A stretch of DNA of 64,000 bases from Eledone cirrhosa (lineage: Eukaryota), in the NCBI GenBank assembly GCA_964016885.1, contig OZ024743.1, positions 352,904,001-352,968,000 of the forward strand, in the 5' to 3' direction. This document shows, piece by piece, positions 8,398 to 53,643 of the stretch (positions are counted from its first letter, which is position 1; every line of letters begins with the position of its first letter). The translations under genes and the position numbers were made by a program. The notes below the pieces were generated by a model. The model saw only the letters and a list, made by a program, of their open reading frames with translations. It had not been told where the DNA came from and made no database searches.

Positions 8398-8431
8398 GTG
8401 GTCTTTCCCATCTTTTCCACTCCTTTTCAAC

Positions 8432-12301: not shown

Positions 12302-14393
12302 ATGGCTACGAAAAAGAAATTTCATACGTCACTCCCACTCATTCCGTCTTCTTCTTCCTCAATCATCACTACAGCAGAGAGAAGATTGTCTCTCTCCCTC
12401 CCTTCTTTAAATGTCTCTCTCCCTCCCTTCTCTTTCGCAAGTGACGAAAGAAAAGAAAAGTCTCGTGCAAAGCGTGCAAGGTTTCTCCACGACAACGACG
12501 ACAGCGACGAAACAGGTGTGCGGGAAATACGAAAACCCAGTTCATTCGTCTGACGTCAGGAATAATAGCAGTAGCAGCCGTAATAACAACAGCAACAGTG
12601 ACAATGAAAACAACAGTAGCAGCCGCAACAGCATCACCAGCAGCATAAACAACAACAGCATTAGCAGCAGCAACACCAACAACAACCACAGCAACAGCGG
12701 CGGAGGCAGTAGTCGTAGTACCTGCAACAACAACAAAAGTACCAGCAGCTCTGACGACAACAACAACAGCAGAGAAAAAACCAATCTCATTTGCAGGTAT
12801 TGCGAAAAACTTGGAAACAATCCTCATAACAAATGAGGAATTAGAGGAAGCGAAGAAGATGGTGACAAAGAACGGACACCGAGCAATCTGCAAGGCAGCG
12901 GAAAATTTTTCGAAATCCAAGAGCACTGTACGGTCACGTACCGTACAGTAAGTACAAAATCCCGTAGGGTGGAAAGAGCCACAGAGGCCCAAATACAAAA
13001 AGCCTTGGGGTCTGTGTGGCAGCGGAAAACGCACATCACCCGAGGCAAGAAATATGCCACCGTAGACGTACTTTTTGCCACACCCCAGGAGGCAAAGGAC
13101 CAATCAGTAGTGACCCTAAGGAGCGAGGAAATGGTGTTGGTGCCCTCCTACTGCGGGCAAAAAATTGTGAGGGTCAAACTGACCCACGTCCCCCCCGGAA
13201 TGACCCCTTCTTAGCTGGCCGCGTCTGTCCTCGTCGGAATCGAGGACAAAACAACTGTACTGTAAGTACAGAAAAAAGTAAGAGAAGATTGGGTCGGCTC
13301 CTCCATTGAGATGCTAATCCAAACCAACCAGGAGTGCATCGAAGCTATCCCGGATGTGATAGACTTCGATAACGGCACTCAACTGCCCATAAGTGTTGAG
13401 GGCAAACGCCCGAAATGCTTTCGCTGTGGATCGAAGACTCACCTCAGGGCCTTCTGCAACGAGAAGACCCTGAGAAAGGAGAAAACCCCCCTCCTTTCGA
13501 ATCCGGCTCCACGGCTACCAGCAACAGGACAAGCGGCAACCAGGAACGATAGGCCCGTGGCACCCATACCCACTCCACGGAAATCAAAAACAGCAGCAGC
13601 AGTGGAAATATTAACAACAACAGCAATACCAAATGCAGCTGCAACAGAGACTCCAGTGCAAACATCACCAACAACAACAAGTGAAAGAGTGAAGCTGGTA
13701 CCCCTCCCCGACCTCACAGAATCAGACATGGAGTGTGAGGTGGGAGAGGGATGGCAAAAGGTCGTAAGAAGGCACAAACGCAGAAGCAGCGCATCGTCGC
13801 CTTTGAAAAGGGAGGAAAGAAATGAGAAAAGGGTAAAGTCTACTGCAAAGAGACCCACAGCAGCAACAACACCAACACCATCACCACCCACACTAGCGCC
13901 ACCATCACCACCGGCGACAACCCCACCGCCAACAACACCTTCAACACCACCACCACAAGCACCAACATCGCAAACACAACAACAAAACACACACACCCAG
14001 CAACAACGACAAGAAAATAGCAGAACCACACCCCACCCCCAGAAAAACAAATGCACGGCAATAAATACACACAACAAGAAACTAATGACTTACATAATTG
14101 AACACACAGACATTTCACAACAGGACTACATAATACCAGCACCAATCAAAACGCCAACTAACATAAGACTGCTAAAAATAGCACAGAAACAATACACAAA
14201 CATTAAAACGAAATTCCCCAACGCAGTTGGTGATTTCAGGGACCTAGGAGGAACCATCAATCGAAGAGTATACTCAGACATTCTCTTAGAAGAGCCGACG
14301 ACCAGCCGAAGGGACGATTCAACGGTCCCTTCACCAGACGATCAAGTGAAAAGGGATGTAAAAACCATCCCTCCTCTATCAAAAGTACGGTAA
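12302..14393 (+). pseudogene. ORF1 type B (CFRCGSKTHLRAFC knuckle), disrupted
   Basis: Collinear with the 575-aa open stretch of copy 4. Contains frameshifts and stops. Confidence 0.85.
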
Positions 14394-14428
14394 GTGGTCT
14401 TTCCCATCTTTTCCACTCTATTTTAAAC

Positions 14429-17400
14429 ATGACCTCACTCAGAATAGGCAGCATAAATGCGCGTGGCTTGGGGTCGTCATGGAAGCAGGGTCACCTGCTC
14501 AACGACCTCAGGTCACTAAACATAGATGTAGTGGCCATCAGCGAGACCAGAATCTCCGAAGCACGGGCCTTCGCACCGATCTTCGGCGGCTACGATGTGT
14601 ACGCATCTCCCAGCCGTCCTGGATCGGGTGGAGGAGTTGCTGTGCTTTTTCGGAGAGGTTTGGATCTCGCCATACGGGCCATCTTCCTGGACCCAGAGGG
14701 TAAGCTGGTGGTGCTGGACGTGACCAGCGGAGACGGGCAAGCTTTCAGGCTAGTGGCCGTCTATGCCCCGACAGGAGCAGGGCGGCCTGATTTCTTCCGG
14801 CGTCTGGAGACCTTTCTTGGAACGTCCCGCTCTTTAGTGTTAGTGGGCGACTGGAACGGGATCTTAGATGCACGCTGGGACTGTGTGGGATTAGCGGATA
14901 GGGGTGGAGGGTGCAAGAGCCTCACCAACCTGCTCAGGCGTTTTGAACTGTCTGACAGGTACCGATTGGATTTCCCGAATGTGCCAATGTGGACTTGGAC
15001 AAACCGCATAGGGTCATCCAGATCATATCTAGATAGAGTATTTTGTAGGGAAATAGATAGGTCTAGCATAGGCTGTCCACAATTCAAGATAGTCAGCTAC
15101 ACGGACCACAAATTCGTGATCTGTGTGCTTGACTTAGATAGGCTTCATAGACGAGGACCCGGCTACTGGAAGCTAAACGCGTCCTTACCAGCGCGCAAGG
15201 CCTACAGAGACCGGATTAGCGAACTAGTTAAGCGGGCGTTGACGGGGGCCATCGTCAACAACAAGTGGTGGTTTGCTCTGAAAAGAGCGATTAGAATAGA
15301 ATCGATTAGGTTTAGTAAGGCTTTAGCAATAGAGAAAAATAGAGCAGAGGGAGAACTAGTTAGAAAATTAGACGAGGCGCTTAGCAAAGGCATTGCGACC
15401 GACGTGCTTGCGGCGAAATTGGCCCTTGACCAATTCTTCAATGCAAAGCACGAAGGCTGCGTTGTCAGAGCAAGGGTGCGTGCTCTCAGACACGAGGGGA
15501 CGAAAGCCGTTCAATGGGCCCGAGTGGCGGAGGCGCGTCGTGGCAACAAAGCCACGATCCGGTCTTTGGTGGACCACGACGGGCGCATGCTACTCGATCC
15601 CGGGCAAATGTGTGAAGCTTTTCAGCGACACTTCGCTCAGCTGTTCGGGGGCAGCGGTGGGCTGGGTAGAGGGATGGACTTTAGTGTCTACCTCGACGGA
15701 CTGCCGCGGCTCTCGGCCACTGAGGCGAAGTGTTGCGAAAAGCCGATAACAGCCGCTGAAGTAAGGGAGGAAATGACTGGCTGCACAAGGGGTAAATCGC
15801 CTGGTTTGGATGGTCTGCCCTATGAACTTTACGTACAGATGCCAGACTTGTTCGGAGGCCTCTTGGCGGACGTCTACTGCAACTGGCAACAGAACGGGAG
15901 AATTCCCAGTTCTGTGAGCCGAGGAGCGGTGGCACTGCTGAGAAAGGATCCGAACAAGGGGGATAACATAGAAAATTTCCGGCCCATAACTCTGCTAAAC
16001 ACAGAGTTTAAGATTTTGGCCAAGGTGCTAGCAAAGAGGTTGGCGCTTGTCGTTAGTGGTCTGGTGGGAGAGGCGCAGACATGCGCCATTCCCGACAGAT
16101 CCATCCACGACAACCTCCACCTCATGCGATACATCGTAGAGAGGGTAGATAGGGAACCTGGCGCGGGTGGGTCCTTGATCAATTTAGATCAGTCGAAAGC
16201 TTTCGATAGGGTCGACCATCGTTACCTAGCGGCAGTCCTGAGGGCGGCTGGCTTTGGGCCCCTTCTTCAGAGGCTGGATCACTGCCATGCACAGCGACAT
16301 CTGCTCTGTGGTGAGAGTAAACGGTCACCTGTCGGAACCGTTCAACATCATGCGCTCGGTCCGCCAAGGATGTCCCCTCTCGTCCCTCTTGTACGTATTG
16401 ACTCTCGAGCCATTACTGCACAAACTGGAGACGTTGAGGGGAGTCCCGCGCGAACTAGGATGCGGAAGATCCGTGTCAGCATATGCGGACGATGTCACCG
16501 TAGTGGTGTCGAACGCCAAACACATCGAGGCGATCGGCACTACACTAAGAGAATACGAAGCGGTGGCAGGAGCAATGATCAACCAGGAAAAGTCAGTGGG
16601 CCTGCAGCTCGGCACCTGGAGAGGCAGGTCCATGCCGTTCAACAGCGTCGTCGGACGCTGGACGGACGGACCGGTTAAATTGCTAGGGGTCTGGTTCGGT
16701 CCGGACCTCCAGACGGACAAAAACCGGGACGAGGTGACGAGCAGGGTGGCTTCTCTCACCCAGAAATGGGCGGAGAGGAAGCTATCCCTGAACGGTCGAG
16801 CGGAGGTGGCTAACGCGTACATCGCGTCTGTCATCTGCTACCGCCTGACCGTCGTACCTTGTCCTAAGCCTCGCCTGACTGCGCTGGAGCGTTTGCTCTT
16901 TCGCTTTTTGTGGAAGGGACGTGCTCCGATGGTCAGGCGGTCCATCTGTTGTCAACACCCGCTACGTGGAGGGCTGGGCATGCCGTGGCTGATGATGCGC
17001 AGGCACGCGCTCAGGCTACGACATCTCCACCTATTCCTCGACGGTGATCAGGTGTGGTCGCCGTTTGCTAGGCGCGTATTTCCCCAGCTCGTTTCCTTGA
17101 CGGAGCTGCAGTCCTGGGTCAAGCGAAGACCGAGAGGGAGCGCCTGGAGACTGGAATGTCTTCAGGCGCTCACAGCCCTCGACCAATCGGGCAATGTGAT
17201 CGGTGGAAACTCCACCTCGGCGTTCTATAGAGGATTAGTGGAGGGTAAGAGCGACGACGTACTTGGGGAAACTCTAGGCGTCGACGAAAATCAACTAGCC
17301 AATCTCTTCGGAAGGACTTTCGGGCCGGGGCCTATGGACAACTTCCAGAAATCTCTGGCCTGGCAGTGCTACCGAGGAGCCTTGCCAGTTCGGGATAAAC

Positions 17401-18096: not shown

Positions 18097-18143
<47 letters not shown>

Positions 18144-18155
18144 GTTATTATTATT

Positions 18156-19920: not shown

Positions 19921-22900
19921 GGCGACCTACGTAGTAAAACGTATCATCGTGAGCTCCGCAAAGGTTTGTTGTTTTCAGTTGTTTAAAATTGCCATTTATA
20001 GAAAATTTTTATTGTTGATTGTATATAAGTGCACATACATTGTTTTCTGAAAAGGACACTCAAAAAGATTGGGGCCTTGAGCCCAAATTTTAAACTTTTA
20101 TAATTATCAAAAAAAAACATTTGAAAAGTCATGGCCGACTCACAGCTGAACCCAGTAGCTGAGAGGCTTACTACAAAGTAACACCTCACACCGACACCAC
20201 CTTTGTAAATATTACTACGTTTGCCAACACTAAAAATATAAGCAGTAGCAATATTTTTAATTTGTCTCAGGCAGACATTCATTTCCTGCTATTACCAATG
20301 ACTGCAGGTGTTGAAGCCGCCACCTCCACCACCACCACAGCGACAACAGAAACAAAAGAAAAAAATAAATTATCTCGTGATATCGAAATGATTTCACCCA
20401 GAATGAACTCTTCCACACCGAACACCACTGACGCCACCACCACTACAACTGAAACTAAAATTAACAATAACAAAAATAACGATAACAACAACAGCAACAA
20501 TTAGAATAAGAAAACCACCCTGTCTTTTGCCAGAGTAGCAAAAAAGTGCGAAACATTCCAGGTAACTCAGGATGAATTAGAAGAAGCCAAATAAATGGTA
20601 AAGAAAGATGGGTACAGGGTCAGCCCCCCCCCCCCTCCCAGCCCCACCACCACCACCTAATAAAATGGAGCATCGGCGCCTATGCACCGTGTCTTATCGG
20701 ACGATTAACATAAAATCGCGCCGAGTGGAACGGGCATCCGAGTCCCAAATCCAAAAAGCTTTGGGACATGTGTGGGCAAAAAAAACCCACATCAGACGTG
20801 GGCAAAAATATGGAACCGTGGACGTGTTCTTTGAAACACCACAGGAGGGTAGAGAACACTCCATGGCCCCATTAAGAAGTGACGACTTCACACTCGTCCC
20901 AAGCTATTGTGGCCAGAGACTCGTGAAGATCAGGGTGACCCACGTTCCACCGGCCATCGAAATTCCCTGGCTAATGGTTGCCCACCTCGCCGGCATCGAA
21001 GCCATCACCAAGATAATCGAAATAGCGAAAGAAAAGCAGGAGAACTGGTCCGGATCTGGGATGGAGCTCCTGATCCAAGCGGACCAAAAAAGCATTGAGG
21101 AGATCCCAGAGGTAATAGACCTCACTGACGGCAGCCAACTCACCGTAATTGTCGAGGGCAGAAGGCCTAGGTGTGTCGTTTATGGTGAAGGAACCCACCT
21201 AAGGGCTTTCTGCCCTCAGGCTAAAAGGTTGAGGCCACCTCTCCTACTCACCCCAGTGACTCAACCATCAACACCACCAGCAGCAGAGATGGCCGCAACA
21301 ACTGTAGCAGCAACAACAGAAGCAACTGTAACAGCAAAACCCCCAGCAACAGTAGCAAAACCAACACCACCACCACCCAACGCTTAAGAACTAGCACCAG
21401 CGCCTACACCATCCACCACGCCACAACCAAAACTAACGCCTGTGGAGGATTTTCCACTCCCCGGCCTATCACATCTGGAGACAGATTGTGACGACGAGGA
21501 GTGGGAAACGGTATCAGGAAAAAAGAAAAAAAGAAACCAAAAAAGAAAAATTCTCTTCCTTCCCCCTCCAAAAACAAAATACAGAGGGATACAAATAAAC
21601 TATCAAACAAAAAAGTTAGGACAGATATGCCACCATCCACACCAGCATCACCAACCCCATCACCACAAACACCAACACCATCACCATCATTAACCCCAAC
21701 ACCACCATCACTAACACCACAAAAGTCACCAAAAAGCGAAACAGAAACAACCCACAACAAACGCAAACAAAACAAAACAACCAAAACGATACACACTACA
21801 CAGCATTAAATTTGAACAACAACCAATTATTACACTACATCCAACACAACACCAGCATCACAGAAAAAGACTACACAACAACCCAAAAGTTCAGACGAAC
21901 TCCACACATACAAATCACTCGCATCACACAGATAACGTACATGACACTAAAACAAAAATTCCCCAAAGACATCGGAGACTTCCGACAAGCACTCTCCGGG
22001 AGGATTTATAAGGACATCCTTCCTGAGAAGGCCACAAGCAGTGAAAATGGTGGAGAAACCATCCTTCATATACGAGAAGTAAGGTAAGTGGTCTTTCCCA
22101 TCTTTTCCACTCCATTTCAACATGACCTCACTCAGTATAAATGCGCGTGGATTGGGGTCGTCATGGTAGCAGGGCCACCTGCTCAACGACCTCAGGTCGC
22201 TAAACATAGATGTGGTGGCCATCAGCGAGACCAGAATCTCTGAAGCACGGGCCTTCGCAACGATCTTCGGCAGCTACGATCTGTACGCATCTCCCAGCCG
22301 TCCGGGATCGGGGAGAGGAGTTGCTGTGCTTTTTCGGAGAGGTGTAGATCTCGCCATACGGGCCATCTTCCTGGACCCAGAATATAAGTTGGTGGCGCTG
22401 GACGTGACCAGCGGAGAAGGGCAAGCTTTCAGGCTAGTGGCCGTCTATGCTCCGACAGGAGCAGGACAGCCTGATTTCTTCCAGCGTCTGGAGACCTTTC
22501 TTGGAACGTCCCGCTCTTTAGTGTTAGTGGGCGACTGGAACGGGATCTTAGATGCACGCTGGGACTGTGTGGGATTAACGGATAGGGGTGGAGGGTGCAA
22601 GAGCCTCACCAACCTGCTCAGGCGTTTTGAACTGTCTGACATGTACCGATTGGATTTCCCGAATGTGCCAATGTGGACTTGGACAAACCGCATAGGGTCA
22701 TCCAGATCATATCTAGATAGAGTATTTTGTAGGGAAATAGATAGGTCTAGCATAGGCTGTTCACAATTCAAGATAGTCAGCTACACGGACCACAAGTTCG
22801 TGATTTGTGTGCTTGACTTAGATAGGATTCATAGACGAGGACCCGGTTAATGGAAGCTAAACGCGTCCTTACAAGCGCGCAAGGCCTACAGAGACCGGAT

Positions 22901-25451: not shown

Positions 25452-27550
25452 ATGGCTACGAAAAAGAAATTTCATACGTCACTCCCACTCATTCCGTCTT
25501 CTTCCTCAATCATCACTACAGCAGAGAGAAGATTGTCTCTCTCCCTCCCTTCTTTAAATGTGTCTCTCTCCCTCCCTTCTCTTTCGCAAGTGACGAAAGA
25601 AAAGAAAAGTCTCGTGCAAAGCGTACAAGGTTTCTCCACGACGACGACGACAGCGACGAAACAGGTGTGCGGGAAATACGAAAACCCAGTTCATTCGTCT
25701 GACGTCAGGAATAATAGCAGTAGCAGCCGTAATAACAACAGCAACAGTGACAATGAAAACAACAGTAGCAGCCGCAACAGCATCACCAGCAGCATAAACA
25801 ACAACAGCATTAGCAGCAGCAACACCAACAACAACCACAGCAACAGCGGCGGAGGCAGTAGTCGTAGTACCTGCAGCAACAACAAAAGTACCAGCAGCTC
25901 TGACGACAACAACAACAGCAGCAGCAGAGAAAAACCAATCTCATTTGCAGGTATTGCGAAAAACTTGGAATCAATCCTCATAACAAATGAGGAATTAGAG
26001 GAAGCGAAGAAGATGGTGACAAAGAATGGACACCGAGCAATCTGCAAGGCAGCGGAAAAATTTTTCGAAACCCAAGAGCACTGTACGGTCACGTACCGTA
26101 CAGTAAGTACAAAATCCCGTAGGGTGGAAAGAGCCACAGAGGCCCAAATACAAAAAGCCTTGGGGTCTGTGTGGCAGCGGAAAACGCACATCACCCGAGG
26201 CAAAAAATATGCCACCGTAGACGTACTTTTTGCCACACCCCAGGAGGCAAAGGCCCAATCAGTAGTGACCCTAAGGAGCGAGGAAATGGTGTTGGTGCCC
26301 TCCTACTGCGGGCAAAAAATTGTGAGGGTCAAACTGACCCACGTCCCCCCCGGAATGGCCCCTTCTTGGCTGGCCGCGTCTGTCCTCGTCGGAATCGAGG
26401 ACAAAACAACTGTACTGCAAGTACAGAAAAAAGTAAGAGAAGATTGGGTAGGCACCTCCATTGAGATGCTAATCCAAACCAACCAGGAGTGCATCGAAGC
26501 TATCCCGGATGTGATAGACTTCGATAACGGCACTCAACTGCCCATAAGTGTTGAGGGCAAACGCCCGAAATGCTTTCGCTGTGGATCGAAGACTCACCTC
26601 AGGGCCTTCTGCAACGAGAAGACCCTGAGAAAGGAGAAAACCCCCCTCCTTCCGAATCCGGCTCCACAGCTACCAGCAACAGGACAAGCGGCAACCAGGA
26701 ACGATAGGTCCGTGGCACCCATACCCACTCCACGGAAATCAAAAACAGCAGCAGCAGTGGAAATATTAACAACAACAACAGCAATACCAAATGCAGCTGC
26801 AACAGAGACTCCAGTGCAAACATCACCAACAACAACAAGTGAAAGAGTGGAGTTGGTACCCCTCCCCGACCTCACAGAATCAGACATGGAGTGTGAGGTG
26901 GGAGAGGGATGGCAAAAGGTCGTAAGAAGGCACAAACGCAGAAGCAGCGCATCGTCGCCTTTGAAAAGGGAGGAAAGAAATGAGAAAAGGGTAAAGTCTA
27001 CTGCAAAGAGACACACAGCAGCAACAACCACCAACACCATCACCACCCACACTAGCACCATCATCACCACCGGCGACAACCCCACCGCCAACAACACCTT
27101 CAACACCACCACCACAAGCACCAACATCGCAAACACAACAACAAAACACACACACCCAGCAACAACGACAAGAAAATAGCAGAACCACACCCCACCCCCA
27201 TAAAAACAAATGCACGGCAATAAACACACACAACAAGAAACTAATGACTTACATAATTGAACACAGACATTTCACAACAGGACTACATAATACCAGCACC
27301 AATCAAAACGCCAACTAACATAAGACTGCTAAAAATAGCACAGAAACAATACACAAACATTAAAACGAAATTCCCCAACGCAGTTGGTGATTTCAGGGAC
27401 CTAGGAGGAACCATCAATCGAAGAGTATATTCAGACATTCTCTTAGAAGAACCGACAACCAGCCGAAGGGACGATTCAACGGTCCCTTCACCAGACGATC
27501 AAGTGAAAAGGGATGTAAAAACCATCCCTCCTCTACCAAAAGTACGGTAA
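25452..27550 (+). pseudogene. ORF1 type B, best-preserved copy (frameshifted only in the C-terminal low-complexity part)
   Basis: 575-aa ORF with Asn/Ser-rich N-terminus, conserved core and CCHC. The C-terminal piece ends PLPKVR*. Confidence 0.88.
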
Positions 27551-27585
27551 GTGGTCTTTCCCATCTTTTCCACTCTATTTTAAAC

Positions 27586-30500
27586 ATGACCTCACTCAGA
27601 ATAAGCAGCATAAATGCGCGTGGCTTGGGGTCGTCATGGAAGCAGGGTCACCTGCTCAACGACCTCAGGTCACTAAACATAGATGTAGTGGCCATCAGCG
27701 AGACCAGAATCTCCGAAGCACGGGCCTTCGCACCGATCTTCGGCGGCTACGATGTGTACGCATCTCCCAGCCATCCTGGATCGGGTGGAGGAGTTGCTGT
27801 GCTTTTTCGGAGAGGTTTGGATCTCGCCATACGGGCCATCTTCCTGGACCCAGAGGGTAAGCTGGTGGTGCTGGACGTGACCAGCGGAGACGGGCAAGCT
27901 TTCAGGCTAGTGGCCGTCTATGCCCCGACAGGAGCAGGGCGGCCTGATTTCTTCCGGCGTCTGGAGACCTTTCTTGGAACGTCCCGCTCTTTAGTGTTAG
28001 TGGGCGACTGGAACGGGATCTTAGATGCACGCTGGGACTGTGTGGGATTAGCGGATAGGGGTGGAGGGTGCAAGAGCCTCACCAACCTGCTCAGGCGTTT
28101 TGAACTGTCTGACAGGTACCGATTGGATTTCCCGAATGTGCCAATGTGGACTTGGACAAACCGCATAGGGTCATCCAGATCATATCTAGATAGAGTATTT
28201 TGTAGGGAAATAGATAGGTCTAGCATAGGCTGTCCACAATTCAAGATAGTCAGCTACACGGACCACAAATTCGTGATCTGTGTGCTTGACTTAGATAGGC
28301 TTCATAGACGAGGACCCGGCTACTGGAAGCTAAACGCGTCCTTACCAGCGCGCAAGGCCTACAGAGACCGGATTAGCGAACTAGTTAAGCGGGCGTTGAC
28401 GGGGGCCATCGTCAACAACAAGTGGTGGTTTGCTCTGAAAAGAGCGATTAGAATAGAATCGATTAGGTTTAGTAAGGCTTTAGCAATAGAGAAAAATAGA
28501 GCAGAGGGAGAACTAGTTAGAAAATTAGACGAGGCGCTTAGCAAAGGCATTGCGACCGACGTGCTTGCGGCGAAATTGGCCCTTGACCAATTCTTCAATG
28601 CAAAGCACGAAGGCTGCGTTGTCAGAGCAAGGGTGCGTGCTCTCAGACACGAGGGGACGAAAGCCGTTCAATGGGCCCGAGTGGCGGAGGCGCGTCGTGG
28701 CAACAAAGCCACGATCCGGTCTTTGGTGGACCACGACGGGCGCATGCTACTCGATCCCGGGCAAATGTGTGAAGCTTTTCAGCGACACTTCGCTCAGCTG
28801 TTCGGGGGCAGCGGTGGGCTGGGTAGAGGGATGGACTTTAGTGTCTACCTCGACGGACTGCCGCGGCTCTCGGCCACTGAGGCGAAGTGTTGCGAAAAGC
28901 CGATAACAGCCGCTGAAGTAAGGGAGGCAATGACTGGCTGCACAAGGGGTAAATCGCCTGGTTTGGATGGTCTGCCCTATGAACTTTACGTACAGATGCC
29001 AGACTTGTTCGGAGGCCTCTTGGCGGACGTCTACTGCAACTGGCAACAGAACGGGAGAATTCCCAGTTCTGTGAGCCGAGGAGCGGTGGCACTGCTGAGA
29101 AAGGATCCGAACAAGGGGGATAACATAGAAAATTTCCGGCCCATAACTCTGCTAAACACAGAGTTTAAGATTTTGGCCAAGGTGCTAGCAAAGAGGTTGG
29201 TGGTCTGGTGGGAGAGGCGCAGACATGCGCCATTCCCGACAGATCCATCCACGACAACCTCCACCTCATGCGATACATCATAGAGAGGGTAGCTAAGGAA
29301 CCTGGCACGGGTGGGTCCTTGATCAATTTAGATCCGACGAAAGCTTTCGATAGGGTCGACCATCGTTACCTAGCGGCAGTCCTGAGGGCGGCTGGCTTTG
29401 GGCCCGTCTTCAGAGGCTGGATCGCTGCCATGCACAGCGACATCTGCTCTGTGGTGAGAGTGAACGGTCACCTGTAGGAACCGTTCAACATCATGCGCTT
29501 GGTCCGCCAAGGATGTCCCCTCTCGTCCCTCTTGTACGTATTGACTCTCGAGCCATTACTGCACAAACTGGAGACGTTGAGGGGAGTCCCGCGCGAACTA
29601 GGATGCGGAAGATCCGTGTCAGCATATGCGGACGATGTCACCGTAGTGGTGTCGAACGCCAAACACATCGAGGCGATCGGCACTACACTAAGAGAATACG
29701 AAGCGGTGACAGGAGCAATGATCAACCAGGAAAAGTCAGTGGGCCTGCAGCTCGGCACCTGGAGAGGCAGGTCCATGCCGTCCAACAGCGTCGTCGGACG
29801 CTGGACGGACGGACCGGTTAAATTGCTAGGGGTCTGGTTCGGTCCGGACCTCCAGACGGACAAAAACTGGGACGAGGTGACGAGCAGGGTGGCTTCTCTT
29901 ACCCAGAAATGGGCGGAGAGGAAGCTATCCCTGAAAGGTCGAGCGGAGGTGGCTAACGCGTACATCGCGTCTGTCATCTGCTACCGCCTGACCGTCGTAC
30001 CTTGTCCTAAGCCTCGCCTGACTGCGCTGGAGCGTTTGCTCTTTTGCTTTTTGTGGAAGGGACGCGCTCCGATGGTCAGGCGGTCCATCTGTTGTCAACA
30101 CCCGCTACGTGGAGGGCTGGGCATGCCGTGGCTGATGATGCGCAGGCACGCGCTCAGGCTACAACATCTCCACCTCTTCCTCGACGGTGATCAGGTGTGG
30201 TCGCCGTTTGCTAGGCGCGTATTTCCCCAGCTCGTTTCCTTGACGGAGCTGCAGTCCTGGGTCAAGCGAAGACCGAGAGGGAGCGCCTGGAGACTGGAAT
30301 GTCTTCAGGCGCTCACAGCCCTCGACCAATCGGGCAATGTGATCGGTGGAAACTCCACCTCGGCGTTCTATAGAGGATTAGTGGAGGGTAAGAGCGACGT
30401 CGTACTTGGGGAAACTCTAGGCGTCGACGAAAATCAACTAGCCAATCTCTTCGAAAGAACTTTCGGGCCGGGGCCTATGGACAACTTCCAGAAATCTCTG

Positions 30501-30992: not shown

Positions 30993-31483
30993 ATTAAAGG
31001 TGGAAAACTGGGAGAGGGCACTTGCCTTGGTGGTCAGGGTCATTATGGCTTTTTACTGGGCTTTCTCCACAAATGTCCCTCCGAAGTCTCCCCCCTATTG
31101 GGGAATTTTTAATTGTTATTTTCATTGTTATTTTTGTTACATCCTCTGTTTTTGTTTTTTACACGCATAAATGCCCATTTGTACCGTCCTGTATTGTCCT
31201 GTACTGTCCTTAATGTCTACTTTATGTGAACCCTTGTGGTTAATAAAGAAAACATTATTATTATTATTATTATTGGCGACCTACGTAGGAAATCGTATTA
31301 TCGTGAGCTCCGCAAAGGTTTGTTATTTCCGTTTGTTTAAAAATTGCCATTTATGGAAAATTTTATTGTAAACTGTTTATAAGCACACATACATTGTTTT
31401 CCGAAAAGGACACCCAAAAAGATTGGGGCCTTGTGCCCAAAATTTTAACTTTTATTATTATCCAAAAATTTCTTTGAAAAAAA

Positions 31484-33479
31484 ATGGCTAATTCCCCTCT
31501 GCACGAAGCAGCTGAAAGCCTTCCTCACAAAATAACACCTCACACCGACACCACCATTGTAAATGTTACTACGTTTGCCAACACAAAAAAAAATATAAGC
31601 AGTAGCAATATTTTAAATTTGTCTCAGGCAGACATTCATTTCCCGCCATTACCAATGACTGCAGGTGTTAAACCCTCCACCACCACCACCACCGCGACAA
31701 CCACCACCACCACCACCACCACCGCGACAACAGAAACAAAAGAAGAAAAAAATAAATTAACTCGTGACGTCGAAATGAAATCAAGCAAAATGGACTCTTC
31801 CCCACCAAAGACGACTGACGTCACAACCACCACAACTGAAAATAAAATTAATATTAACGATAGCAACAACAACAACAATGACATTATAAAACCGACCCTC
31901 AGTTTCGCCATCGTAGCAAAACAATTCGAAGCGTTCACGGTAACCCAAGAAGATTTAGAAAATGCCAAACAAATGGTAAAGAAAGATGGGTACAGGGTCA
32001 GCCTCACCCCCCCCCCCCCCACCTAATAAAATGGAGCATCGGCGCCTGTGCACCGTGTCGTATAGAACAATAAATGTAAAATCGCGCCGAGTGGAACGGG
32101 CATCCGAGTCCCAAATCCAAAAAGCTTTGGGACATGTGTGGGCAAGAAGAACCCACATCAGACGTGGGCAAAAGTATGGAACCGTGGATGTGTTCTTTGA
32201 AACACCAGAGGAGGCTAGAGAACACTCCATGGCCCCATTAAAAAGTGACGACCTCACACTCGTCCCAAGCTATTGTGGCCAGAGACTCGTAAAGATCAGG
32301 GTGACCCACGTTCCACCGGCCATCGAAATTCCCTGGCTAATAGCGGCTGTCCTCACCGGCATCGAAGCCAACACGAAAATAATAGCAGTAGCAAAAGAAA
32401 AGCAGGAAAACTGGTCCGGATCTGGGATGGAGCTCCTGATCCAAGCGGACCAAAAAAGCATTGAGGAGATCCCAGAGGTAATAGACCTCACTGACGGCAG
32501 CCACCTCACGGTAATTGTCGAGGGCAGAAGACCTAGGTGTGTCGTTTGTGGTGAAGGAACCCACCTAAGGGCTTTCTGCCCTCAGGCTAAAAGGTTGAGG
32601 CCACCTCTCCTACCCACCCCAGTGACAAAACCATCAACACCACCAGTAGCAGAGATGGCAGCAACAACTGTAGCAGCAACAACAGAAGCAACTATAACAG
32701 CAACAACCCCAGCAACAGTAGCAAAACCAACACCACTACCACCACCAGCAAAACCAACACCACCACCACCCAACGCTTCAGAACTAGCACCAGCGCCTAC
32801 ACCATCCACCACACCACAACCAAAACTAACGACTGTGGAGGATTTTCCACTCCCCGGCCTATCACAACTGGAGACAGATTGTGACGACGAGGAGTGGGAA
32901 ACGATATCCGGAAAAAAAAAAAGAAACCAAAAAAGAAAAAATTCTCCTCCTTCCCCCTCCAAAAACAAAATACAGAGGGAAACAAATAAACTAAGAAACA
33001 AAAAAGTTAGGACAGATATGCCACCATCCACACCAGCATCACCAACCCCATCAACCCAAACACCAACACCATCACCATCATCATCCCCAGCACCACCATC
33101 ACCTACACCACAAAAGTCACCAAAAAGCGAAACAGAAACAAACCCACAACAAACGCAAACAAAACAAAACAACCAAAACGATACACACTACACAGCATTA
33201 AATTTGAACAACAAGCAATTATTACACTACATCCAACACAACACCAGCATCACAGAAAAAGACTACACAACAACCCCAAAATTCACACCACCTCCACACA
33301 TACAAATCACTCGCATCACACAGAAAACGTACATGACACTAAAACAAAAATTCCCCAAAGACATCGGAGACTTCCGACAAGCACTCTCCAGGAGGATTTA
33401 TAAGGACATCCTTCCTGAGGAGGCCACAAGCAGTGAAAAGGATGGAAAAGCCGTCCTTCCCCTACGAGAAGTAAGGTAA
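31484..33479 (+). CDS. ORF1 type A with a single frameshift in a poly-C run (~32010, possibly a sequencing error)
   Basis: 180-aa and 497-aa ORFs joined at the homopolymer. CCHC knuckle and Pro/Thr-rich tail. Confidence 0.85.
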
Positions 33480-33513
33480 GTGGTCTTTCCCATCTTTTCC
33501 ACTCCTTTTCAAC

Positions 33514-36500
33514 ATGACCTCACTCAGAATAGGCAGCATAAATGCGCGTGGCTTGGGGTCGTCATGGAAGCAGGGCCACCTGCTCAACGACCTCAGGTCA
33601 CTAAACATAGATGTAGTGGCCATCAGCGAGACCAGAATCTCCGAAGCACAGGCTTTCGCACCGATCTTCGGCGGCTACGATGTGTACGCATCTCCCAGCC
33701 GTCCGGGATCGGGGGGAGGAGTTGCTGTGCTTTTTCGGAGAGGTTTGGATCTTGCCATACGGGCCATCTTCCTGGACCCAGAAGGTAAGTTGGTGGTGCT
33801 GGACGTGACCAGCGGAGACGGGCAAGCTTTCAGGTTAGTGGCCGTCTATGCCCCGACAGGAGCAGGGCGGCCTGATTTCTTCCGGCGTCTGGAGACCTTT
33901 CTTGGAACGTCCCGCTCTTTAGTGTTAGTGGGCGACTGGAACGGGATCTTAGATGCACGCTGGGATTGTGTGGGATTAGTGGATAGGGAAGGAGGGTGCA
34001 ATAGTCTCACCAACCTGCTCAGACGTTTTGAACTGTCTGACAGGTACCGAATGGATTTCCCGAATGTACCAATGTGGACTTGGACAAATCGCATAGGGTC
34101 ATCCAGATCATATCTAGATAGAGTATTTTGTAGAGAAATAGATAGGTCTAGCATAGGCTGTCCACAATTCAAGATAGTCAGCTACACGGACCACAAATTC
34201 GTGATCTGTGTGCTTGACTTAGATAGGCTTCATAGACGAGGACCCGGCTACTGGAAGCTAAACGCGTCCTTACCAGCGCGCAAGGCCTACAGAGACCGGA
34301 TTAGCGAACTAGTTAAGCGGGCGTTGACGGGGGCCATCGTCAACAACAAGTGGTGGTTTGCTCTGAAAAGAGCAATTAGAATAGAGTCCATTAGGTTTAG
34401 TAAGACTTTAGCAATAGAGAAAAATAGAGCAGAGGGAGAATTAGTTAGAAAATTAGATGAGGCGCTTAGCAAAGGCATCGCGACCGACGTACTTGCGGCG
34501 AAATTGGCCCTTGACCAATTCTTCAATGCAAAGCACGAAGGCTGCGTTGTCAGAGCTAGGGTGCGTGCTCTCAGACACGAGGGGACGAAAGCCGTTGAAT
34601 GGGCCCGAGTGGCGGAGGCGCGTCGTGGCAACAAAGCCACGATCCGGTCTTTCGTGGACCACGACGGGCGCATGCTACTCGATCCCGGGCAAATGTGTGA
34701 AGCTTTTCAGCGACACTTCGCTCAACTGTTCGGGGGCAGTGGCCGGCCGGATCGAGGGATGGACTTTAGTGTCTACCTCGACGGACTGCCGCGGCTTTCG
34801 GCCACTGAGGTGGAGTGTTGCGAAAAGCCGATAACAACCGCTGAAGTACGGGATGCAATGACTAGTTGCACAAGGGGCAAATCGCCTGGTTTGGATGGTC
34901 TGCCCTATGAACTTTACGTACAAATGCCAAACTTGTTCGGAGGCCTCTTGGCGGACGTCTACTGCAACTGGCAACAGAACGGGAGAATTCCCAGCTCTGT
35001 GAGCCGAGGAGCGGTGGCGCTGCTGAGAAAGGATCCGAACAAGGGGGATAACATAGATAATTTTAGGCCCATAACTCTGCTAAACACAGAGTTCAAGATT
35101 TTGGCCAAGGTGCTAGCAAAGAGGTTGGCGCTTGTCGTTGGTGGTCTGGTGGGAGAGGCACAGATATGCGCCATTCCCGACAGATCCATCCACGACAACC
35201 TCCACCTCATGCGATACATCGTAGAGAGGGTAGCTAGGGAACCTGGCACGGGTGGGTCTTTGATCAATTTAGATCAGTCGAAAGCCTTCGATAGGGTCGA
35301 CCATCGTTACCTAGCGGCAGTCCTGAGGGCGGCTGGCTTTGGGCCCGTCTTCAGAGGCTGGATCGCTGCCATGCACAGCGACATCTGCTCTGTAGTGAGA
35401 GTGAACGGTCACCTTTCGGAACCGTTCAACATCATGCGCTCGGTCCGCCAAGGATGTCCCCTCTCGTCCCTATTGTACGTATTGACTCTCGAGCCATTAC
35501 TGCACAAACTGGAGACGTTGAGGGGGGTCCCGCGCGAACTAGGATGCGGAAGATCCGTGTCAGCATATGCCGACGATGTCACCGTAGTGGTGTCGAACGC
35601 CAAACACATCGAGGCGATCGGCACTACACTAAGAGAATACGAAGCGGTGACAGGAGCAATGATCAACCAGGAAAAGTCAGTGGGCCTGCAGCTCGGCACC
35701 TGGAGAGGCAGGTCCATGCCGTCCAACAGCGTCGTCGGGCGCTGGACGGACGGGCCGGTTAAATTGCTAGGGGTCTGGTTCGGTCCAGACCTCCAGACGG
35801 ACAAAAACTGGGACGAGGTGACGAGCAGGGTGGCTTCTCTCACCCAGAAATGGGCGGAGAGGAAGCTATCCCTAAAAGGTCGAGCGGAGGTGGCGAACGC
35901 GTACATCGCATCCGTCATCTACTACCGCCTGACCGTCGTACCTTGTCCTAAGCCCCGCCTGACTGCGCTGGAGCGTTTGCTCTTTCGCTTCTTGTGGAAG
36001 GGACGCGCTCCGATGGTCAGGCGGTCCATCTGCTGTCAACACCCGCTACGTGGAGGGCTGGGCATGCCGTGGCTGATGATGCGCAGACACGCGCTCAGGC
36101 TACGACATCTCCACCTCTTCCTCGACGGTGATCAGGTGTGGTCGCCGTTTGCAAGACACGTTTTTCCCCAGCTCGTCTCCTTGACGGAGCTGCAGTCCTG
36201 GGTCAAGCGAAGACCGAGAGGGAGCGCTTGGAGACTGGAATGTCTTCAGGCGCTCACAGCCCTCGACCAATCGGGCAATGTGATCGGTGGAAACTCCACC
36301 TTGGCGTTCTATAGGGGATTAGTGGAGGGGAAGAGCGACGACGTACTTGGAGAAACTCTAGGCGTCGACGAAAATCAACTAGCCAATCTCTTCGGAAGGA
36401 CTTTCGGGCCGGGGCCTATGGACAACTTCCAGAAATCCCTGGCCTGGCAGTGCTACCGAGGAGCTTTGCCAGTTCGGGATAAACTCTACAGGCATGGAGG

Positions 36501-37003
36501 TGCCGTCAGCCGGGCATGTCCGAGATGCGCGCAGGGCGACGAAACCGTCCTGCACGCACTCGTGCATTGCTGACTTGTGGGTTTATGTCGAACACCTGCT
36601 GTCACGTGTAGGACGGATCCAGCTGTCAGCTGAGTCCATCGTCAGCATTGCTGACTTGTGGGTTTATGTCGAACACCTGCTGTCACGTGTAGGACGGATC
36701 CAGCTGTCAGCTGAGTCCATCGTGAGGATTGCCCCACCCCCTTCCTTTAGCCGGGAAGGGCAGGCAGTTTTTATCTGTCTGGTGGCCATGGCGAAAGAGA
36801 TAGTATGGTGGACACGTTTGAAAGGGCTGAAGACGAGCACTTACCTCTTCGGTGATGCCCTGATTAACTTTTTCAAATTTCATTTGAAAAGGAAAATCAG
36901 GGTAGAGAGGGAATTGCTCTCTTCCCAGCATTTTGTTGAAAGATGGGTGAGAGAAGCAAGTATGGCCCGAATGAATGGGCCTTCTCTGAGTATGTGTCTG
37001 TAA
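33514..37003 (+). CDS. ORF2 APE-RT, open for 1019 aa and broken at the C-terminal CCHC by a deletion plus duplication
   Basis: All APE and RT motifs are intact (YTDH, YADD). Confidence 0.93.
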
Positions 37004-37245
37004 ATTAAAGGTGGAAAACTGGGAGAGGGCACTTGCCCTGGTGGTCAGGGCCACTGTGGTCTTTTAATGGGCTTTCTCCACAAATGTCCCTTGGAAGTCT
37101 CCCCCCTATTGGGGAATTTTTCTTTGTTATTTTATTTCAACCTCTGTTTTTTTACACGCAGAAATGCCCATTTGTACCGTCCTGTATTGTCCTGTACTGT
37201 CCTTAATGTCTACTTTATGTGAACCCTTGTGGTTAATAAAGAAAA

Positions 37246-37291
<46 letters not shown>

Positions 37292-41313: not shown

Positions 41314-44300
41314 GAATGCTATGGTTGACGGAGGCTCGGCTCTGTAAGGTATTGTAAATTTTGACCGCTATAACAATTGTAAATTGTTTAAAACTTTAAC
41401 CAAATTGTAGACAAAAATACCCTCCTTCTCGTGAGAGGGGTCTTTCTGCCCGTTATTTGGCCCTTCGGGTTAAATAACCGCTTATTGGGGTTTTGTGCCC
41501 AATATTTATTTTAAACAAAAAAAAAATGGCTGCGAAAAAGAATTTTCATAGGTCACTCCCACTCATTCCGTCTTCTTCTTTCTCAATCGTCACTACAACA
41601 GACAGAAGGTTGTCTCTCTCCCTCCCTTCTCTAAATGTGTCTCTCTCCCTCCCTTCTCTTTCGCAAGCGACGCCAGAAAAGAAAAATCACGTGCAAGGCG
41701 TGCAAAATTTCTCCACGACGACGACGACAACGACGAAAAAGGTGTGCGGGAAATACGAAAACCCATTTCATTCGTCTGACGTCAGGAATAATAGCAGTAG
41801 CAGCCGTAATAACAGCAGCAGCAGCAACAGTGACAAGGAAAACAACAGTAGCAGCTGCAACAGCATCAGCATCAGCATAAACAACAACAGCATTAGCAGC
41901 AACAGCAACAACAACAGCAGCAGCAGCAACAACAACAACAACAACAACCACAGCAACAGCGGCGGCGGCAGTAGTCGTAGTACCTGCAGCAACAACAACA
42001 AAAGTAACAGCAGCTCTGACGACAACAACAACAACAACAACAGCAGCAGCAAAGAAAAACCAATCTCATTTGCAGGTATCGCAAAGAACCTGGAAACCAT
42101 CCTCATAACAAATGAGGAATTAGAGGAAGCGAAGAAGATGGTGACGAAAACCGGACACCGAGCAATCTGCAAGGCAGCCGAAACATTTTTCGAAACTCAA
42201 CAGCACTGTACGGTCACGTACCGTGCAGTAAGCACAAAATCCCGTAGGGTTGAAAGAGCCACAGAGGCTCAAATACAAAAAGCCTTAGGGTCTGTGTGGC
42301 AGCGAAAAACGCACATCACCCGAGGCAAGAAATATGCCACCGTAGACGTGCTTTTTGCCACACCCAGGAGGCAAAGGCTCAATCCTTAGTGACCCTAAGG
42401 AGCGAGGAAATGGTATTGGTGCCCTCCTACTGCGGGCAAAAAATTGTGAGGGTCACACTGACCCACGCCCCCCCCCCCCCCCCCCGGGATGGCCCCTTCT
42501 TGGTTGGCCGCGTCTGTCCTCGTCGGAATCGAGGACAAAACAACTGTACTGCAAGTACAGAAAAAAGTAAGAGAAGATTGGGTCGGCACCTCCATTGCGA
42601 TGTTAATCAAAACCAACCAGGAGTGCATCGAAGCTATCCCGGATGTGATAGACTTCGATAACGGCACTCAACTGCCCATAAGTGTTGATGGAAAACGCCC
42701 AAAATGCTTTCGCTGTGGATCGAAGACTCACCTCGGGGCCTTCTGCAACGAGAAGACCCTGAGAAAGGAGAAAACCCCCTCCTTCCGAAACCGGCTCCAC
42801 GGCTACCAGAAACAGGACAAGCGGCAACCAGGAACGATAGGTCCGTGGCACCCATACCCACGCCACGGAAATCAAGAACAGCAGCAGCAGTGGAAGTATT
42901 AACAACAACAGCAATACCAAATGCAGCTGCAACAGAGACTCCAGTGCAAACATCACCAACAACAACAAGTGAAAGAGTGGAGCTGGTACCCCTCCCCGAC
43001 CTCACAGAATCAGACATGGGGTGTGAGGTGGGAGAGGGATGGCAAAAGGTCGTAAGAAGGCACAAACGCAGAAGCAGCGCATCATCGCCTTCGAAAAGGG
43101 AGGAAAGAAATGAAAAAAGGTAAAAGCTACTGCAAAGAGACTCACAGTAGCAACACCACCAACACCATCACCACCGGCGACAACCCCACCGCCAACAACA
43201 ACAACACCTTCAACACCACCACCACAAGCACCAACATCGCAAACACAACAACAAAACACACACACCCTGCAACAACGACAAGAACAGCAGAACCACACCC
43301 CACCCCCAGAAAAACAAATGCACGGCAATAAATACACACAACAAGAAACTAATGACTTACATAATTGAACACACAGACATTTCACAGCACGACTACATAA
43401 TACCAGCACCAATCAAAACGCCAAATAACATAAGACTGCTAAAAATAGCACAGAAACAATACACAAACATTAAAACGAAATTCCCCAACGCAGTTGGTGA
43501 TTTCAGAGACCTAGGAGGGACTCTCAACCGGAGAGTATATTCGGACATACTCATAGAAGAGCCGACGACCAGCCGAAGAGATGATTCAACGGTCCCTTCA
43601 CCAGACGATCAAGTGAAAAGGGATGGAGAAACCATCCTTCCTCTACGAAAAGTACGGTAAGTGGTCTTTCCCATCTTTTCCACTCTATTTTAAACATGAC
43701 CTCACTCAGAATAGGCAGCATAAATGCGCGTGGATTGGGGTCGTCATGGAAGCAGGGTCACCTGCTCAACGACGTCAGGTCACTAAACATAAATGTAGTG
43801 GCCATCAGCGAGACCAGAATCTCCGAAGCACGGGCCTTCGCACCGATCTTCGGCGGCTAAGATGTGTACGCATTTCCCAGCCGTCCTGGATCGGGGGAAG
43901 GAGTTGCTGTGCTTTTTCGGAGAGGTTTGGATCTCGCCATACGGGCCATCTTTCTGGACCCAGAGGGTAAGTTGGTGGTGCTGGACGTGACCAGCGGAGA
44001 CGGGCAAGCTTTCAGGCTAGTGGCCGTCTATGCCCCGACAGGAGCAGGGAGGCCTGATTTCTTCCGGCGTCTGGAGACCTTTCTTGGAACGTCCCGCTCT
44101 TTAGTGTTATTGGGCGACTGTAACGGGATCTTAGATGCCCGCTGGGACTGTGTGGGATTAGCAGATAGGGGTGGAGGGTGCAAGAGCCTCACCAACCTGC
44201 TCAGGCGTTTTGAACTGTCTGACAGGTACCGATTGGATTTCCCCAACCTGCTCAGGCGTTTTGAACTGTCTGACAGGTACCGATTGGATTTCCCGAATGT

Positions 44301-50400: not shown

Positions 50401-53341
50401 ACCACAGCAAACACAGAAAGCACCAACACCCCAACAGCAGACACAATACACAGCCATAGACACACACATAAAAATAATAGAAATCACCCTAAAAAATTAC
50501 ATGACATTAAAAAAAATGTTCCCCACGTCAATTGGAGACTACCGAGGGAACATCACTAAAAGAATATTCACAGACATTCTCGTGGAGAAACCCGCCACTG
50601 GTCGGAGGGATGGATCACCCATCCCCTTCCTAAAAAAGAGCCACAGGTAAAGTTTTTTTTTTTACTTTTCTCCTCTCACTTGTTTTTTTCCTATCCTAGC
50701 CAACATGGCTTCTCTCAGGATAGGTAGCATAAATGCACGTGGCCTGGGGTCGTCTTGGAAGCAGGGCCACCAGCTCAGGTCGCTAAACATAGATGTGGTG
50801 GCCATCAGCGTGACCAGAATCTCCGAAGCACGGGAATTCGCACCCATTTTCGGCGGCTACGAGGTGTACACATCTCCAAGCCACCTCGGATCGGGGGGGG
50901 GGGGGGCTGTGTTGTTCCGGAGAAGTCTGGATCTCGAAATACTTGGACCCAGAAGGTAAGTTGGTGGTGCTGAGCGTGACCAGCGGAGAAAGGCAAGCTT
51001 TCAGGCTAGTGGCCGTCTATTCCCCACCAGGAGCAAGACGGCCTGACTTCTTCCGGCGTCTGGAGATCTTTTTTGGAACGTCCGGCTCTTTAGTGTTAGT
51101 GGGCGACTGGAACGGGATCTTAGATGCACGCTGGAACTGTGTGGGATTAGCGGCGCGGATAGGAGAGGAGGGTGTAAAAGCCTCGCAAACCTGCTCAGAC
51201 CTTTCCAACTGTCTGACAAGTACCGTTTGGATTTCCCAAATGTGCCAATGTGGACTTGGACAAACCTTATCGGGTCATGAAGATCATATCTAGATAGGGT
51301 ATTTTGTAGGGAAATAGATAGGTCTAGCATAGGCTGTCCACAATTCAAGATAGTCAACTACACGGACCACAAATTCGTGATCTGTGTGGTTGACTTAGAT
51401 AGGCTTCATAGACAGGGACCCGGATACTGGAAGCTAAACGCGTTGTTAACAGCGTGCAAAGCTTACAGAGACCGGATTAGCGAATTAGTTAAGCGGGCAT
51501 TGACGGGGGCCATCGACAACAAAAATGGTGGTTGGCCCTGAAAAGAGCGATTAGAATAGAGTCCATTAGGTTTAGTAAGGCGTTAGCAATGGAGAAAAAT
51601 AGAGCAGAGGGAGAACTAGTTAGCTAATTAGACGAGGCGCTTAGTAAAGGCATCGCCATCGACGTGCTTGCGGCGAAATTAGCCCTCGACCAATTTTTCA
51701 ATGCAAAGCACGAAGGCTGTGGTGTCAGTGCTAGGGCGCGTGCTCTCAGAAACGAGCGGACGAAAGCCGTTCGATGGGTCCGAGTGGCTGAGACACGTCG
51801 TAGCAACAAAGCCACGATCCGGTCATTGGTGGACCATGACGGGCGCATGTTACTCGATCCCGGGAAAATGTGTGCGGCTTTTCAGCGACACATTGCTCAG
51901 CTGTTCGGGGGCAGCGGCGGGCCGGATCGCGGGATGGACTTTAATGCCTACCTCGACGGACTGCCGCGGCTCTCAGCCACTGAGGCGGAGTGTTGCGAAA
52001 AGCCGATAGCAGCCGCTGAAGTACGGGAGTCAATGACTGGCTGCACAATGGGTAAATCGCCTGGTTTGGATGGTCTGCCCTACGAACTTTACGTACATAT
52101 GCCAGACTTGTTCGGAGACCTCTTGGCGGACGTCTATTGCAACTGGCAGCAGAACGGGAGAATTCCCAGCTCTGTGAGCCGACGAGCGGTGCCGCTGCTG
52201 AGAAAGGATCCGAACAAGGGGGGTAACATAGATAATTTCAGGCCCATAATTCTGCTAAACACAGAGTTCAACATTTTGGCCAAGGTGCTAGCAAAGAGGT
52301 TGGCGCTTGTCGTCGGCGGTCTGGTGGGAGAGGCGCAGACATGGGCTATTCCAGCCAGATCCATCCTCGACAACCTCCACCTCATGCGATACATCGTAGA
52401 GAGGGTAGCTAGGGAACCTGGAACGGGTGGGTCCTTGATCAATTTAGATCAGTCGAAAGCCATCGTTATCTGGCGGCAGTCCTGAGAGCGGCAGGCTTTG
52501 GGCCCGTCTTCAAAGGCTGGATCGCTGCCATGCACAGCGACATCTACTCTGTGGTGAGAGTGAACGGTCACCTTTCGGAACCGTTCAACATCATGCGCTC
52601 GGTCCGCCAAGGATGTCCCCTCTCGTCCCTCTTGTACGTATTGACTCTCGAGCCATTACTGCACAAACTGGAGACGTTGAGGGGAGTCCCGCGCGAACTG
52701 GGATGCGGAAGAACTGTGTCAGCATATGCAGACGACGTCACCCTAGTGGTGTCGAACGCCAAACACATCGAGGCGATCGGCACTACACTAAGAGAATACA
52801 AGGCGGTGACAGGAGCAAAGATCAACCAAGAAAAGTCGGTGGGCCTGCAACTCGGCACCTGGAGAGACAGGTCCATGCCGTCGACAGCATCGCCGGGTGC
52901 TGGACGGATAGGCGGACCGGTTAAATTGCTAGGGGTCTGGTTCGGTCCGGACCTCCAGGCGGACAAAAGCTGGGACTAGGTGACGAGCAGGGTGGCCTCT
53001 CTCACCCAGAAATGGGCCGAGAGGAAGCTATCCCTGAAAGGTCGAGTGGAGGTGGCGAACGCGTACATCGCGTCCGTCATCTACTACTGCCTGACCGTCG
53101 TGCCTTGTCTTAAGCCTCACCTGACTCTGCTGGAACATTTGCTCTTTTGCTTTTTGTGGAAGGGACGTACTCCGATGGTTAGGCGGTCCATTGCTGTCAA
53201 CACCCGCTACGCGGAGGGCTGGGCATGCCGTGGTTGATGATGCACAGACATGCGCTCAGGCTACGGCATCTCCACCTCTTCCTCGACGGTGATCAGGTGT
53301 GGTTGCCGTTTGCTAGAAGTGTGTTTCCCCAGCTCGTCTCC
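47424..53341 (+). mobile_element. Tx1-like copy 8, type C 5' cassette, older and 3'-truncated
   Basis: Starts ggtcgctgaagc. ORF1 remnant 47637-50650 is homologous to A/B (LCSVSYRT..VERAT, CHGCGDKTHLKAF). ORF2 runs from 50705 (MASLRIGSINARG) and ends abruptly at 53341. Confidence 0.9.
47976..48943 (+). mobile_element. 5'-truncated I-group (Nimb/Ingi/I-like) LINE fragment with RNase H and CCHC, nested in the type C ORF1
   Basis: VYTD..GAG, SSFHSE, ICDCKSLV, WVPGHCSIKGNELAD, RFRSGH, CRLC..ESSEHLWMRC. Apparent 10-bp TSD aacagcagca at 47966-47975 and 48944-48953. Confidence 0.88.
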
Positions 53342-53527: not shown

Positions 53528-53643
53528 CATACTTAAGGTAAACATTGACGGAATACATGCACATGAGCACGTACATACTGACACATACATTAACACACAT
53601 ACACATACACGCACACGTAATGTATCTTTATGTATGTATGTAT

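Follow-up and report, generated by a model that had tools for sequence, protein, structure and literature searches.

Organization of the elements

A 64,000-nucleotide (nt) stretch of DNA from Eledone cirrhosa (contig OZ024743.1, positions 352,904,001 to 352,968,000), called the window here, contains seven tandem junctions between the two open reading frames (ORFs) of a long interspersed nuclear element (LINE), lying between (ATT)n runs, and at each of them a sequence of the 5' splice donor type is found on the stop codon of ORF1. The seven junctions belong to one LINE group and are put into three types: A (copies 1, 3 and 5), B (copies 2, 4 and 6) and C (copy 7). Copy 5 is a full-length type A element (31275..37246, on the forward strand like all features given below) flanked by (ATT)n runs, as defined by self-BLAST and a microsatellite map. 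Its ORF1 (31484..33479) changes frame near 32010 at a poly-C run and terminates with Arg-TAA. A zinc knuckle of the CCHC kind, CX2CX4HX4C, can be read from the ORF1 sequence (32538..32579), and a Pfam search of ORF1 gave no family above cut-off. The stop is contained in the conserved donor, or U1-pairing, 9-mer AAG-GTAAGT (33473..33481), which is followed by a pyrimidine-rich, AG-free spacer with CAAC right before the ORF2 AUG (33482..33513). The ORF2 start codon (33514..33516) is retained in every family examined, and ORF2 itself (33514..37003) comprises an APE endonuclease (EN), a reverse transcriptase (RT) and a zf-RVT domain, with an interruption near 36570 in copy 5.

Pfam domains Exo_endo_phos and RVT_1 were detected in ORF2 above cut-off, and against a cut-off of 27.5 bits the C-terminal zf-RVT scored 34.6 in copy 2 and 27.0 in the interrupted copy 5. 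For an intact type B ORF2 (L152) the best PDB match was human L1 ORF2p (E 3.8e-52), ahead of R2. Homologues of ORF1 come from Octopus bimaculoides, O. sinensis and Argonauta, named for four of the ten looked up, in agreement with the cephalopod origin guessed in an earlier note; metagenome contigs gave no relatives. The elements are most likely bicistronic L1/Tx1-type LINEs, Tx1 being a plausible but provisional label. They share with human LINE-1 and with L1-Tx1 of O. vulgaris the two ORFs, an ORF2 with APE, RT and a C-terminal zinc domain, a short inter-ORF spacer, a polyadenylation signal and a simple-repeat tail, but all families here are set apart from such LINEs by the near-perfect donor that coincides with their ORF1 stop. 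In O. vulgaris 13 recently active L1-Tx1 families have been described (PMC13282606).

The donor at the end of ORF1

An earlier note on this DNA had described the spacer as a conserved mini-intron joining ORF1 to ORF2 in frame; its observation is confirmed and its interpretation is partly supported. A stretch starting with GT and ending with AG was found in type A copy 1 (8394..8445, 52 nt), type B copy 2 (14390..14442, 53 nt), type A copy 3 (22084..22135, 52 nt), type B copy 4 (27547..27599, 53 nt), type A copy 5 (33476..33527, 52 nt), type B copy 6 (43657..43709, 53 nt) and type C copy 7 (50647..50718, 72 nt). In all seven ORF1 ends with Arg and a stop inside the donor, and joining across GT..AG in silico keeps the frame. 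The product R-IGSINARG, announced for the group, is obtained in five copies, the others giving R-ISSINARG (copy 4, by a point change) and SINARG (copy 3, where three codons are indeed deleted 3' of the AG). No AG lies between donor and acceptor in types A and B, and the out-of-frame TAG reported for copy 7 is present at 50697-50699. Type C had been said to keep donor, tract, acceptor and phase. Copy 7 joins in frame, but this 72-nt copy with lengthened T runs is atypical, and in typical C copies the spacer measures 52 nt, the donor is GTAATT and an out-of-frame TAG stands 47 nt from the donor. The pyrimidine tract after the donor is general, with 74-81% pyrimidine in the spacers of all seven families measured. 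The seven copies are not seven independent events; types A and B share one spacer, and their ORF2 N-terminal identity is 98%.

Further families were obtained by searches with divergent proteins and motifs. The donor is the best or tied-best U1 match among 299-350 GT sites in each of the six elements scored, and a match of at least 8/9 to the U1-pairing consensus is seen in 84 of 109 distinct junction sequences, which are related and not independent, versus 3 of 271 control windows. When seven families are aligned on the donor, positions -2 to +6 agree in 6-7 of the seven rows, and positions +7 to +21 mostly in 2-5. The donor is common to three ORF2 lineages well supported in a tree (A/B/C/H, the E group and F/G), between which ORF2 is 67-75% identical and four-fold sites are 48-61% identical. 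It stands in phase 2 in A, B, C, D (one copy), F and G, in phase 1 in E, E2, E3' and H, and in phase 0 in E3, phase 1 being seen in H, which belongs to the A/B/C group, as well as in the E group; the stop may be TAA, TGA or TAG. Among 25 database homologues of the ORF1 C-domain several end with Gly-Lys, Gly-Lys-Ser or Ser-Lys (P0006, P0019, P0020, P0025, P0014), which, read from protein only, is what a phase-1 donor would encode. The site thus shows the pattern of a consensus 5' splice site under selection. As judged from the sequences, the donor is real and persists where the acceptor does not, and the view that its conservation exceeds what ancestry or the stop codon would explain is supported.

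It is unlikely that the motif is kept for a cause other than U1, such as the context of the stop codon, a site acting at the level of DNA, a local hairpin or common descent alone. A stop forces T at +2 and A at +3 in phase-2 families, a purine after the stop favours termination, and four-fold sites are unsaturated. The conserved donor of human L1 has moreover been attributed to a RUNX3 DNA site (PMC5860796). Nevertheless, the same 9-mer persists in E, H and E3 with the stop elsewhere and of any of the three kinds, and the match does not extend past +6, which is also the limit of U1 pairing. A hairpin hiding the donor was rejected, as it beats shuffled spacers in only two of 13 families.

Acceptors and reading frame

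The proposed acceptor CAG (33525..33527 in copy 5) comes from Leu(CTC)-Arg(AGA) codons of ORF2, and a second possible acceptor, TAG in phase 1 (33530..33532), from the Ile/Val-Gly codons. Counted in nt from the donor, CAG is in frame in A (52), B (53) and D (45), and C has an out-of-frame TAG at 47 and an in-frame CAG at 66. H offers CAG at 54 out of frame and TAG at 59 in frame; E offers CAG at 36 and AAG at 48, both out, and TAG at 53 in frame; E2 and E3' have AAG at 53 out and TAG at 58 in frame. F has AAG at 51 in frame and TAG at 56 out, and old G has TAG at 53 in frame. The single in-frame option in E3 is TAG at 30, with no in-frame AG in the first ORF2 codons, and in young G the first in-frame AG stands at 128 nt. 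C2 and C3 are excluded from this comparison because their old copies disagree on frame. In D, the phase-1 copy L091 shows a one-base loss against the phase-2 copy L250, each being a single old copy.

The acceptor and its phase, which had been taken to be conserved, are not. The CAG is absent from E, E2, E3, F and G, and in the last four it was destroyed by synonymous swaps (CTC/TTA, AGA/CGA) that keep Leu/Ile-Arg; H carries the same CTCAG as A and B, but out of frame. Related families that lack the CAG or place it out of phase, which the earlier note had itself named as evidence against its model, thus exist, namely H, E3, young G and typical C. The phase failures are amplified subfamilies, with 229 exact matches for H, 191 for E3 and 184 for young G. 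ORF2 is intact in E3 (L262) and in four of four young-G copies fetched (1,148 amino acids, 99% identical). Purifying selection on the young-G branch was considered and rejected: three synonymous and six replacement differences were counted over 364 codons and two of five old copies are out of register, so that autonomy is not demonstrated. In ORF2 codons 1-5 Met1 is constant, Leu is CTC or TTA and Arg is AGA or CGA. These codons behave as protein, and they would be intron if ORF2 were made from spliced RNA only. The acceptor CAG is a by-product of the codons for Leu-Arg-Ile-Gly-Ser, and since the opening codons supply AG in phases 2 and 1, most donors get an in-frame partner; unlike the donor, acceptor and phase do not exceed what chance would give.

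It had been proposed that an intron of 45-66 nt is removed in frame to give an ORF1-EN-RT fusion, the unspliced RNA serving as template. This is very improbable and, as a general mechanism, already largely refuted. A and B do join in frame, the first YAG (Y, pyrimidine) at 45 nt or beyond is in frame in seven of 12 families or subfamilies, and old G and E both have an in-frame TAG at 53 nt despite differing spacers and phases. The seven of 12 are little evidence, because Leu-Arg-Ile/Val-Gly-Ser codons give phase-2 and phase-1 AGs and random 25-nt stretches of ORF2 hold a phase-1 or phase-2 YAG in 23-32% of cases. A constant length of 51-53 nt was dropped in part, the values for C, E2 and H being 66, 58 and 59 nt. 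By pyrimidine content the proposed acceptors rank 21/129, 40/121, 101/126, 63/121 and 67/98. The model has to meet an out-of-frame CAG in H, the 30-nt option in E3 and nothing before 128 nt in young G, and it requires both a device barring spliced RNA from copying and exceptions for three subfamilies.

Two possible fusions of another kind were noticed. ORF1 and ORF2 of E3 are in the same frame with a single spacer TAG between them (L262:2593-2634; 191 exact copies), so read-through or removal of 30 nt would fuse them. Natural read-through in an old C2 copy (L235 / L280, G000 C1:244651116-244651326) was rejected, as it is a single copy whose relatives stop at the donor.

Search for spliced copies

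LINE proteins preferentially copy the RNA that encodes them, as established for L1, and a spliced RNA making RT should therefore leave intronless copies. The animal's own genome (2,996 Mb) contains 4,581 matches to the intact A/B donor and 5,038 to the intact acceptor side; against those 4,581 donors the intronless A/B junction was found 0 times (95% upper bound 0.065%). With up to two mismatches 141 matches were obtained versus 133 for a reversed control, and none of 30 opened was an element junction. A wider pattern, in which letters other than those of the spacer come after the A/B ORF1 end, matched 54 times, and none of these matches starts with the exon expected after the mini-intron, the +5 site or the 3' untranslated region (UTR) acceptor, the pattern missing acceptors with exon T at position 2 or 6; among 30 of these opened, eight were copies of the element altered by small indels, point changes or deletions. 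Spliced junctions were likewise absent in E (0 vs 338) and for the old-G junction (0 vs 647 G donors), A/B, E and old G being the families covered. The caveat of the earlier note, that intronless copies were missing, thus holds genome-wide, and an in-frame ORF1-EN-RT fusion as the switch is not supported. In human L1 most RNA is unspliced on northern blots, and the rare splicing has still left 131 spliced copies among 6,609, about 2% of full-length (PMC5860796).

In protein databases a query with E ORF1 found no fused protein longer than 1,113 amino acids, the search being a weak one, and 24 of the 25 ORF1 C-domain homologues have at most 623, the exception of 1,923 amino acids seeming unrelated. 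Contigs X1, X4, X5 and X6, of unrecorded kind, were compared with the A junction, and among the 15 of 29 joints listed none is at the spacer. X4 against L152, which holds a B and an E junction, gave 21 joints, one further row being dropped at repeats, and none at either donor. Unspliced X4 contigs span an A/B-like spacer and the E spacer, and an X4 contig of E ORF1, which breaks off at L152:6376 and is thus 14 nt short of the donor, gives no indication of donor use. None of these contig comparisons is counted as evidence.

A variant of the fusion model, just as improbable, would let a small in-frame spliced share in most families make a fusion that copies only unspliced RNA, the spacer acting as a template-selection signal, with H, E3 and young G using other acceptors or being moved in trans. 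If true, a LINE would keep mRNA and template apart in the manner of a retrovirus.

The main rival, possible though rather doubtful, is splicing from the donor to an acceptor further downstream, accompanied or not by early polyadenylation, which would give an ORF1-only mRNA without RT, like the short GAG RNA of plant Ty1/copia elements, for which EVD offers the precedent (PMC5580714). As frame would be irrelevant, this accounts for frame independence as well as for the donor's place at the ORF1 end and the retained ORF2 AUG, and the spliced RNA would not be copied because no ORF2 protein is made in cis. Candidate acceptors are at hand: in A/B-type ends only, a 3' UTR pyrimidine tract with CAG (37140..37161 in copy 5), which ranks second among the 129 YAGs of A, and the ORF2 stop as YAG-G in E, E3, F and G, with ranks 3-6 in E, F and G. 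However, no acceptor is common to all families, the 3' UTR site was rejected as universal partner since it is missing in E, F and G, and no ORF2-less spliced copies are seen in A/B or E, although the short RNA would keep its 3' end and be easily copied in trans.

Concerning these sites, the YAG-G at the ORF2 stop has a fairly pyrimidine-rich lead-in in E (L143), E3 (L262), F (L271) and G (L259), so that ORF2 could be excised exactly as a single intron; A and B have TAA at the ORF2 stop and the CAG in the 3' UTR instead. TAG sites of acceptor type about 453 and 2,840 nt past the donor within ORF2 (window ~33928 and ~36314) have high ranks in all, or at least most, of the scored families and may be conserved codons only.

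Proposed role of the site

It is held with moderate confidence that the conserved U1-type donor at the end of ORF1 is mainly a U1-binding control site and not the start of an in-frame mini-intron, ORF2 being made from its own AUG on unspliced RNA. In L1 elements ORF2 starts after ORF1 termination. By the proposed mechanism, ribosomes terminating ORF1 would begin again 31-52 nt further on, at the CAAC-AUG. Bound where the A-rich ORF1 ends, U1 would suppress premature cleavage and polyadenylation and so allow full-length RNA, and splicing from the donor would be rare. The site may lie on the stop because few places within the element are free of coding constraint. What the sequences themselves show is a pair of ORFs, the donor, 31-52 nt of pyrimidine spacer, the kept CAAC-type AUG context and the lack of spliced genomic copies. 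In addition, three of four database homologues start with M-x-x-L. ORF1 of copy 5 is A-rich, with seven AATAAA/ATTAAA hexamers within 1.8 kb 5' of the donor, and in six of seven elements the density of these hexamers is 1.7-3.9 per kb before the donor versus 0-0.6 per kb in ORF2.

Several points weigh against a U1 control site, whose role is inferred. A-richness alone would yield such hexamers, and H, with a partial ORF2, is the exception in hexamer density (0.56 vs 1.39 per kb). Occasional splicing would be expected of a perfect donor that has a pyrimidine tract and an AG behind it, but no fossil of such splicing is found. Across B, E, F and G 95 of 295 four-fold columns (32%) are invariant, so ancestry explains part of the donor conservation, and the clustering of the in-frame YAGs at 45-58 nt is not fully explained.

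Other features and arrangement of the elements

Families A, B and E stand head-to-tail with a spacing of about 6 kb, each element starting directly after the preceding (ATT)n tail (window 6234-47423), and a single array with ten E copies occurs elsewhere in the genome (G000 C1:423365215-423418066). Window copies begin after and end in (ATT)n, tail and target being separable only with empty sites; in copy 5 the AATAAA signal and the (ATT)n tail occupy 37235..37291. Copies of F and G end in TATC-type repeats instead, which suggests different targets. Comparison of an A element (6234-12067) with a B element (12086-18101) shows differing 5' UTR and ORF1 on nearly identical spacer and ORF2, which suggests swapping of ORF1 with a breakpoint just 5' of the donor.

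Other donor-like sequences are present. A candidate site about 35-45 nt from the 5' end in A, B and E, and also in the element that begins at 47424, resembles the human L1 5' UTR donor (window 31315-31323, 12110-12125 and 47460-47470; L152 near 4310), and the one in copy 5 (31315..31323), with a 7/9 U1 match, is weaker than the donor at the end of ORF1. A second 9/9 match lies inside ORF2 of copy 5 (33782..33790), and B, E and E3 have matches of 6-8/9 at about that position. Between the arrays lie other RT-like ORFs and fragments belonging to different retroelements (2628-5897, 18144-19896, 37481-38654, 53557-55009, 63234-63887), which may be RTE-like and Penelope-like.

Comparison with known systems

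Human L1 has a conserved 5' UTR donor, G98U99, which is rarely used and whose spliced products are known as SpIREs (PMC5860796). The present donor, for which rare use is likewise presumed, differs in lying at the ORF1 end and in leaving none of the spliced fossils seen in human L1 among 4,581 copies. In EVD, an Arabidopsis Ty1/copia element, U1 at the donor permits splicing and blocks premature termination (PMC5580714). Its short-GAG system also has a conserved donor where the structural gene ends, and the acceptor is of lesser importance there; EVD is, however, a long terminal repeat element with one ORF and proven splicing, whereas here a bicistronic LINE has acceptor candidates that differ by family. 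In SART1 translational coupling at UAAUG lets ORF2 start from its own AUG on bicistronic RNA (PMC3894237), as is supposed here, but in the present elements there is no overlap, stop and start being 31-52 nt apart across a pyrimidine spacer. The same source treats ORF2 initiation as an open question and doubts re-initiation across long spacers. No report of a LINE that conserves a donor at the stop of its ORF1 was found in the literature, Repbase notes and subscription papers being outside scope, and the available part of a Chlamydomonas preprint (bioRxiv 10.1101/2020.06.13.149070) holds nothing on intron-bearing LINEs.

The frame-independent donor on the ORF1 stop is a real variant feature of a known element class and apparently undescribed. 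It bears on the question of how bicistronic LINEs outside mammals balance the output of ORF1 and ORF2 and escape premature termination. A donor on the ORF1 stop, kept across lineages and frames, provides a single mutable site at which U1-based control of a LINE is directly testable, and such control, if true, would parallel that of plant Ty1/copia elements in an unrelated element class.

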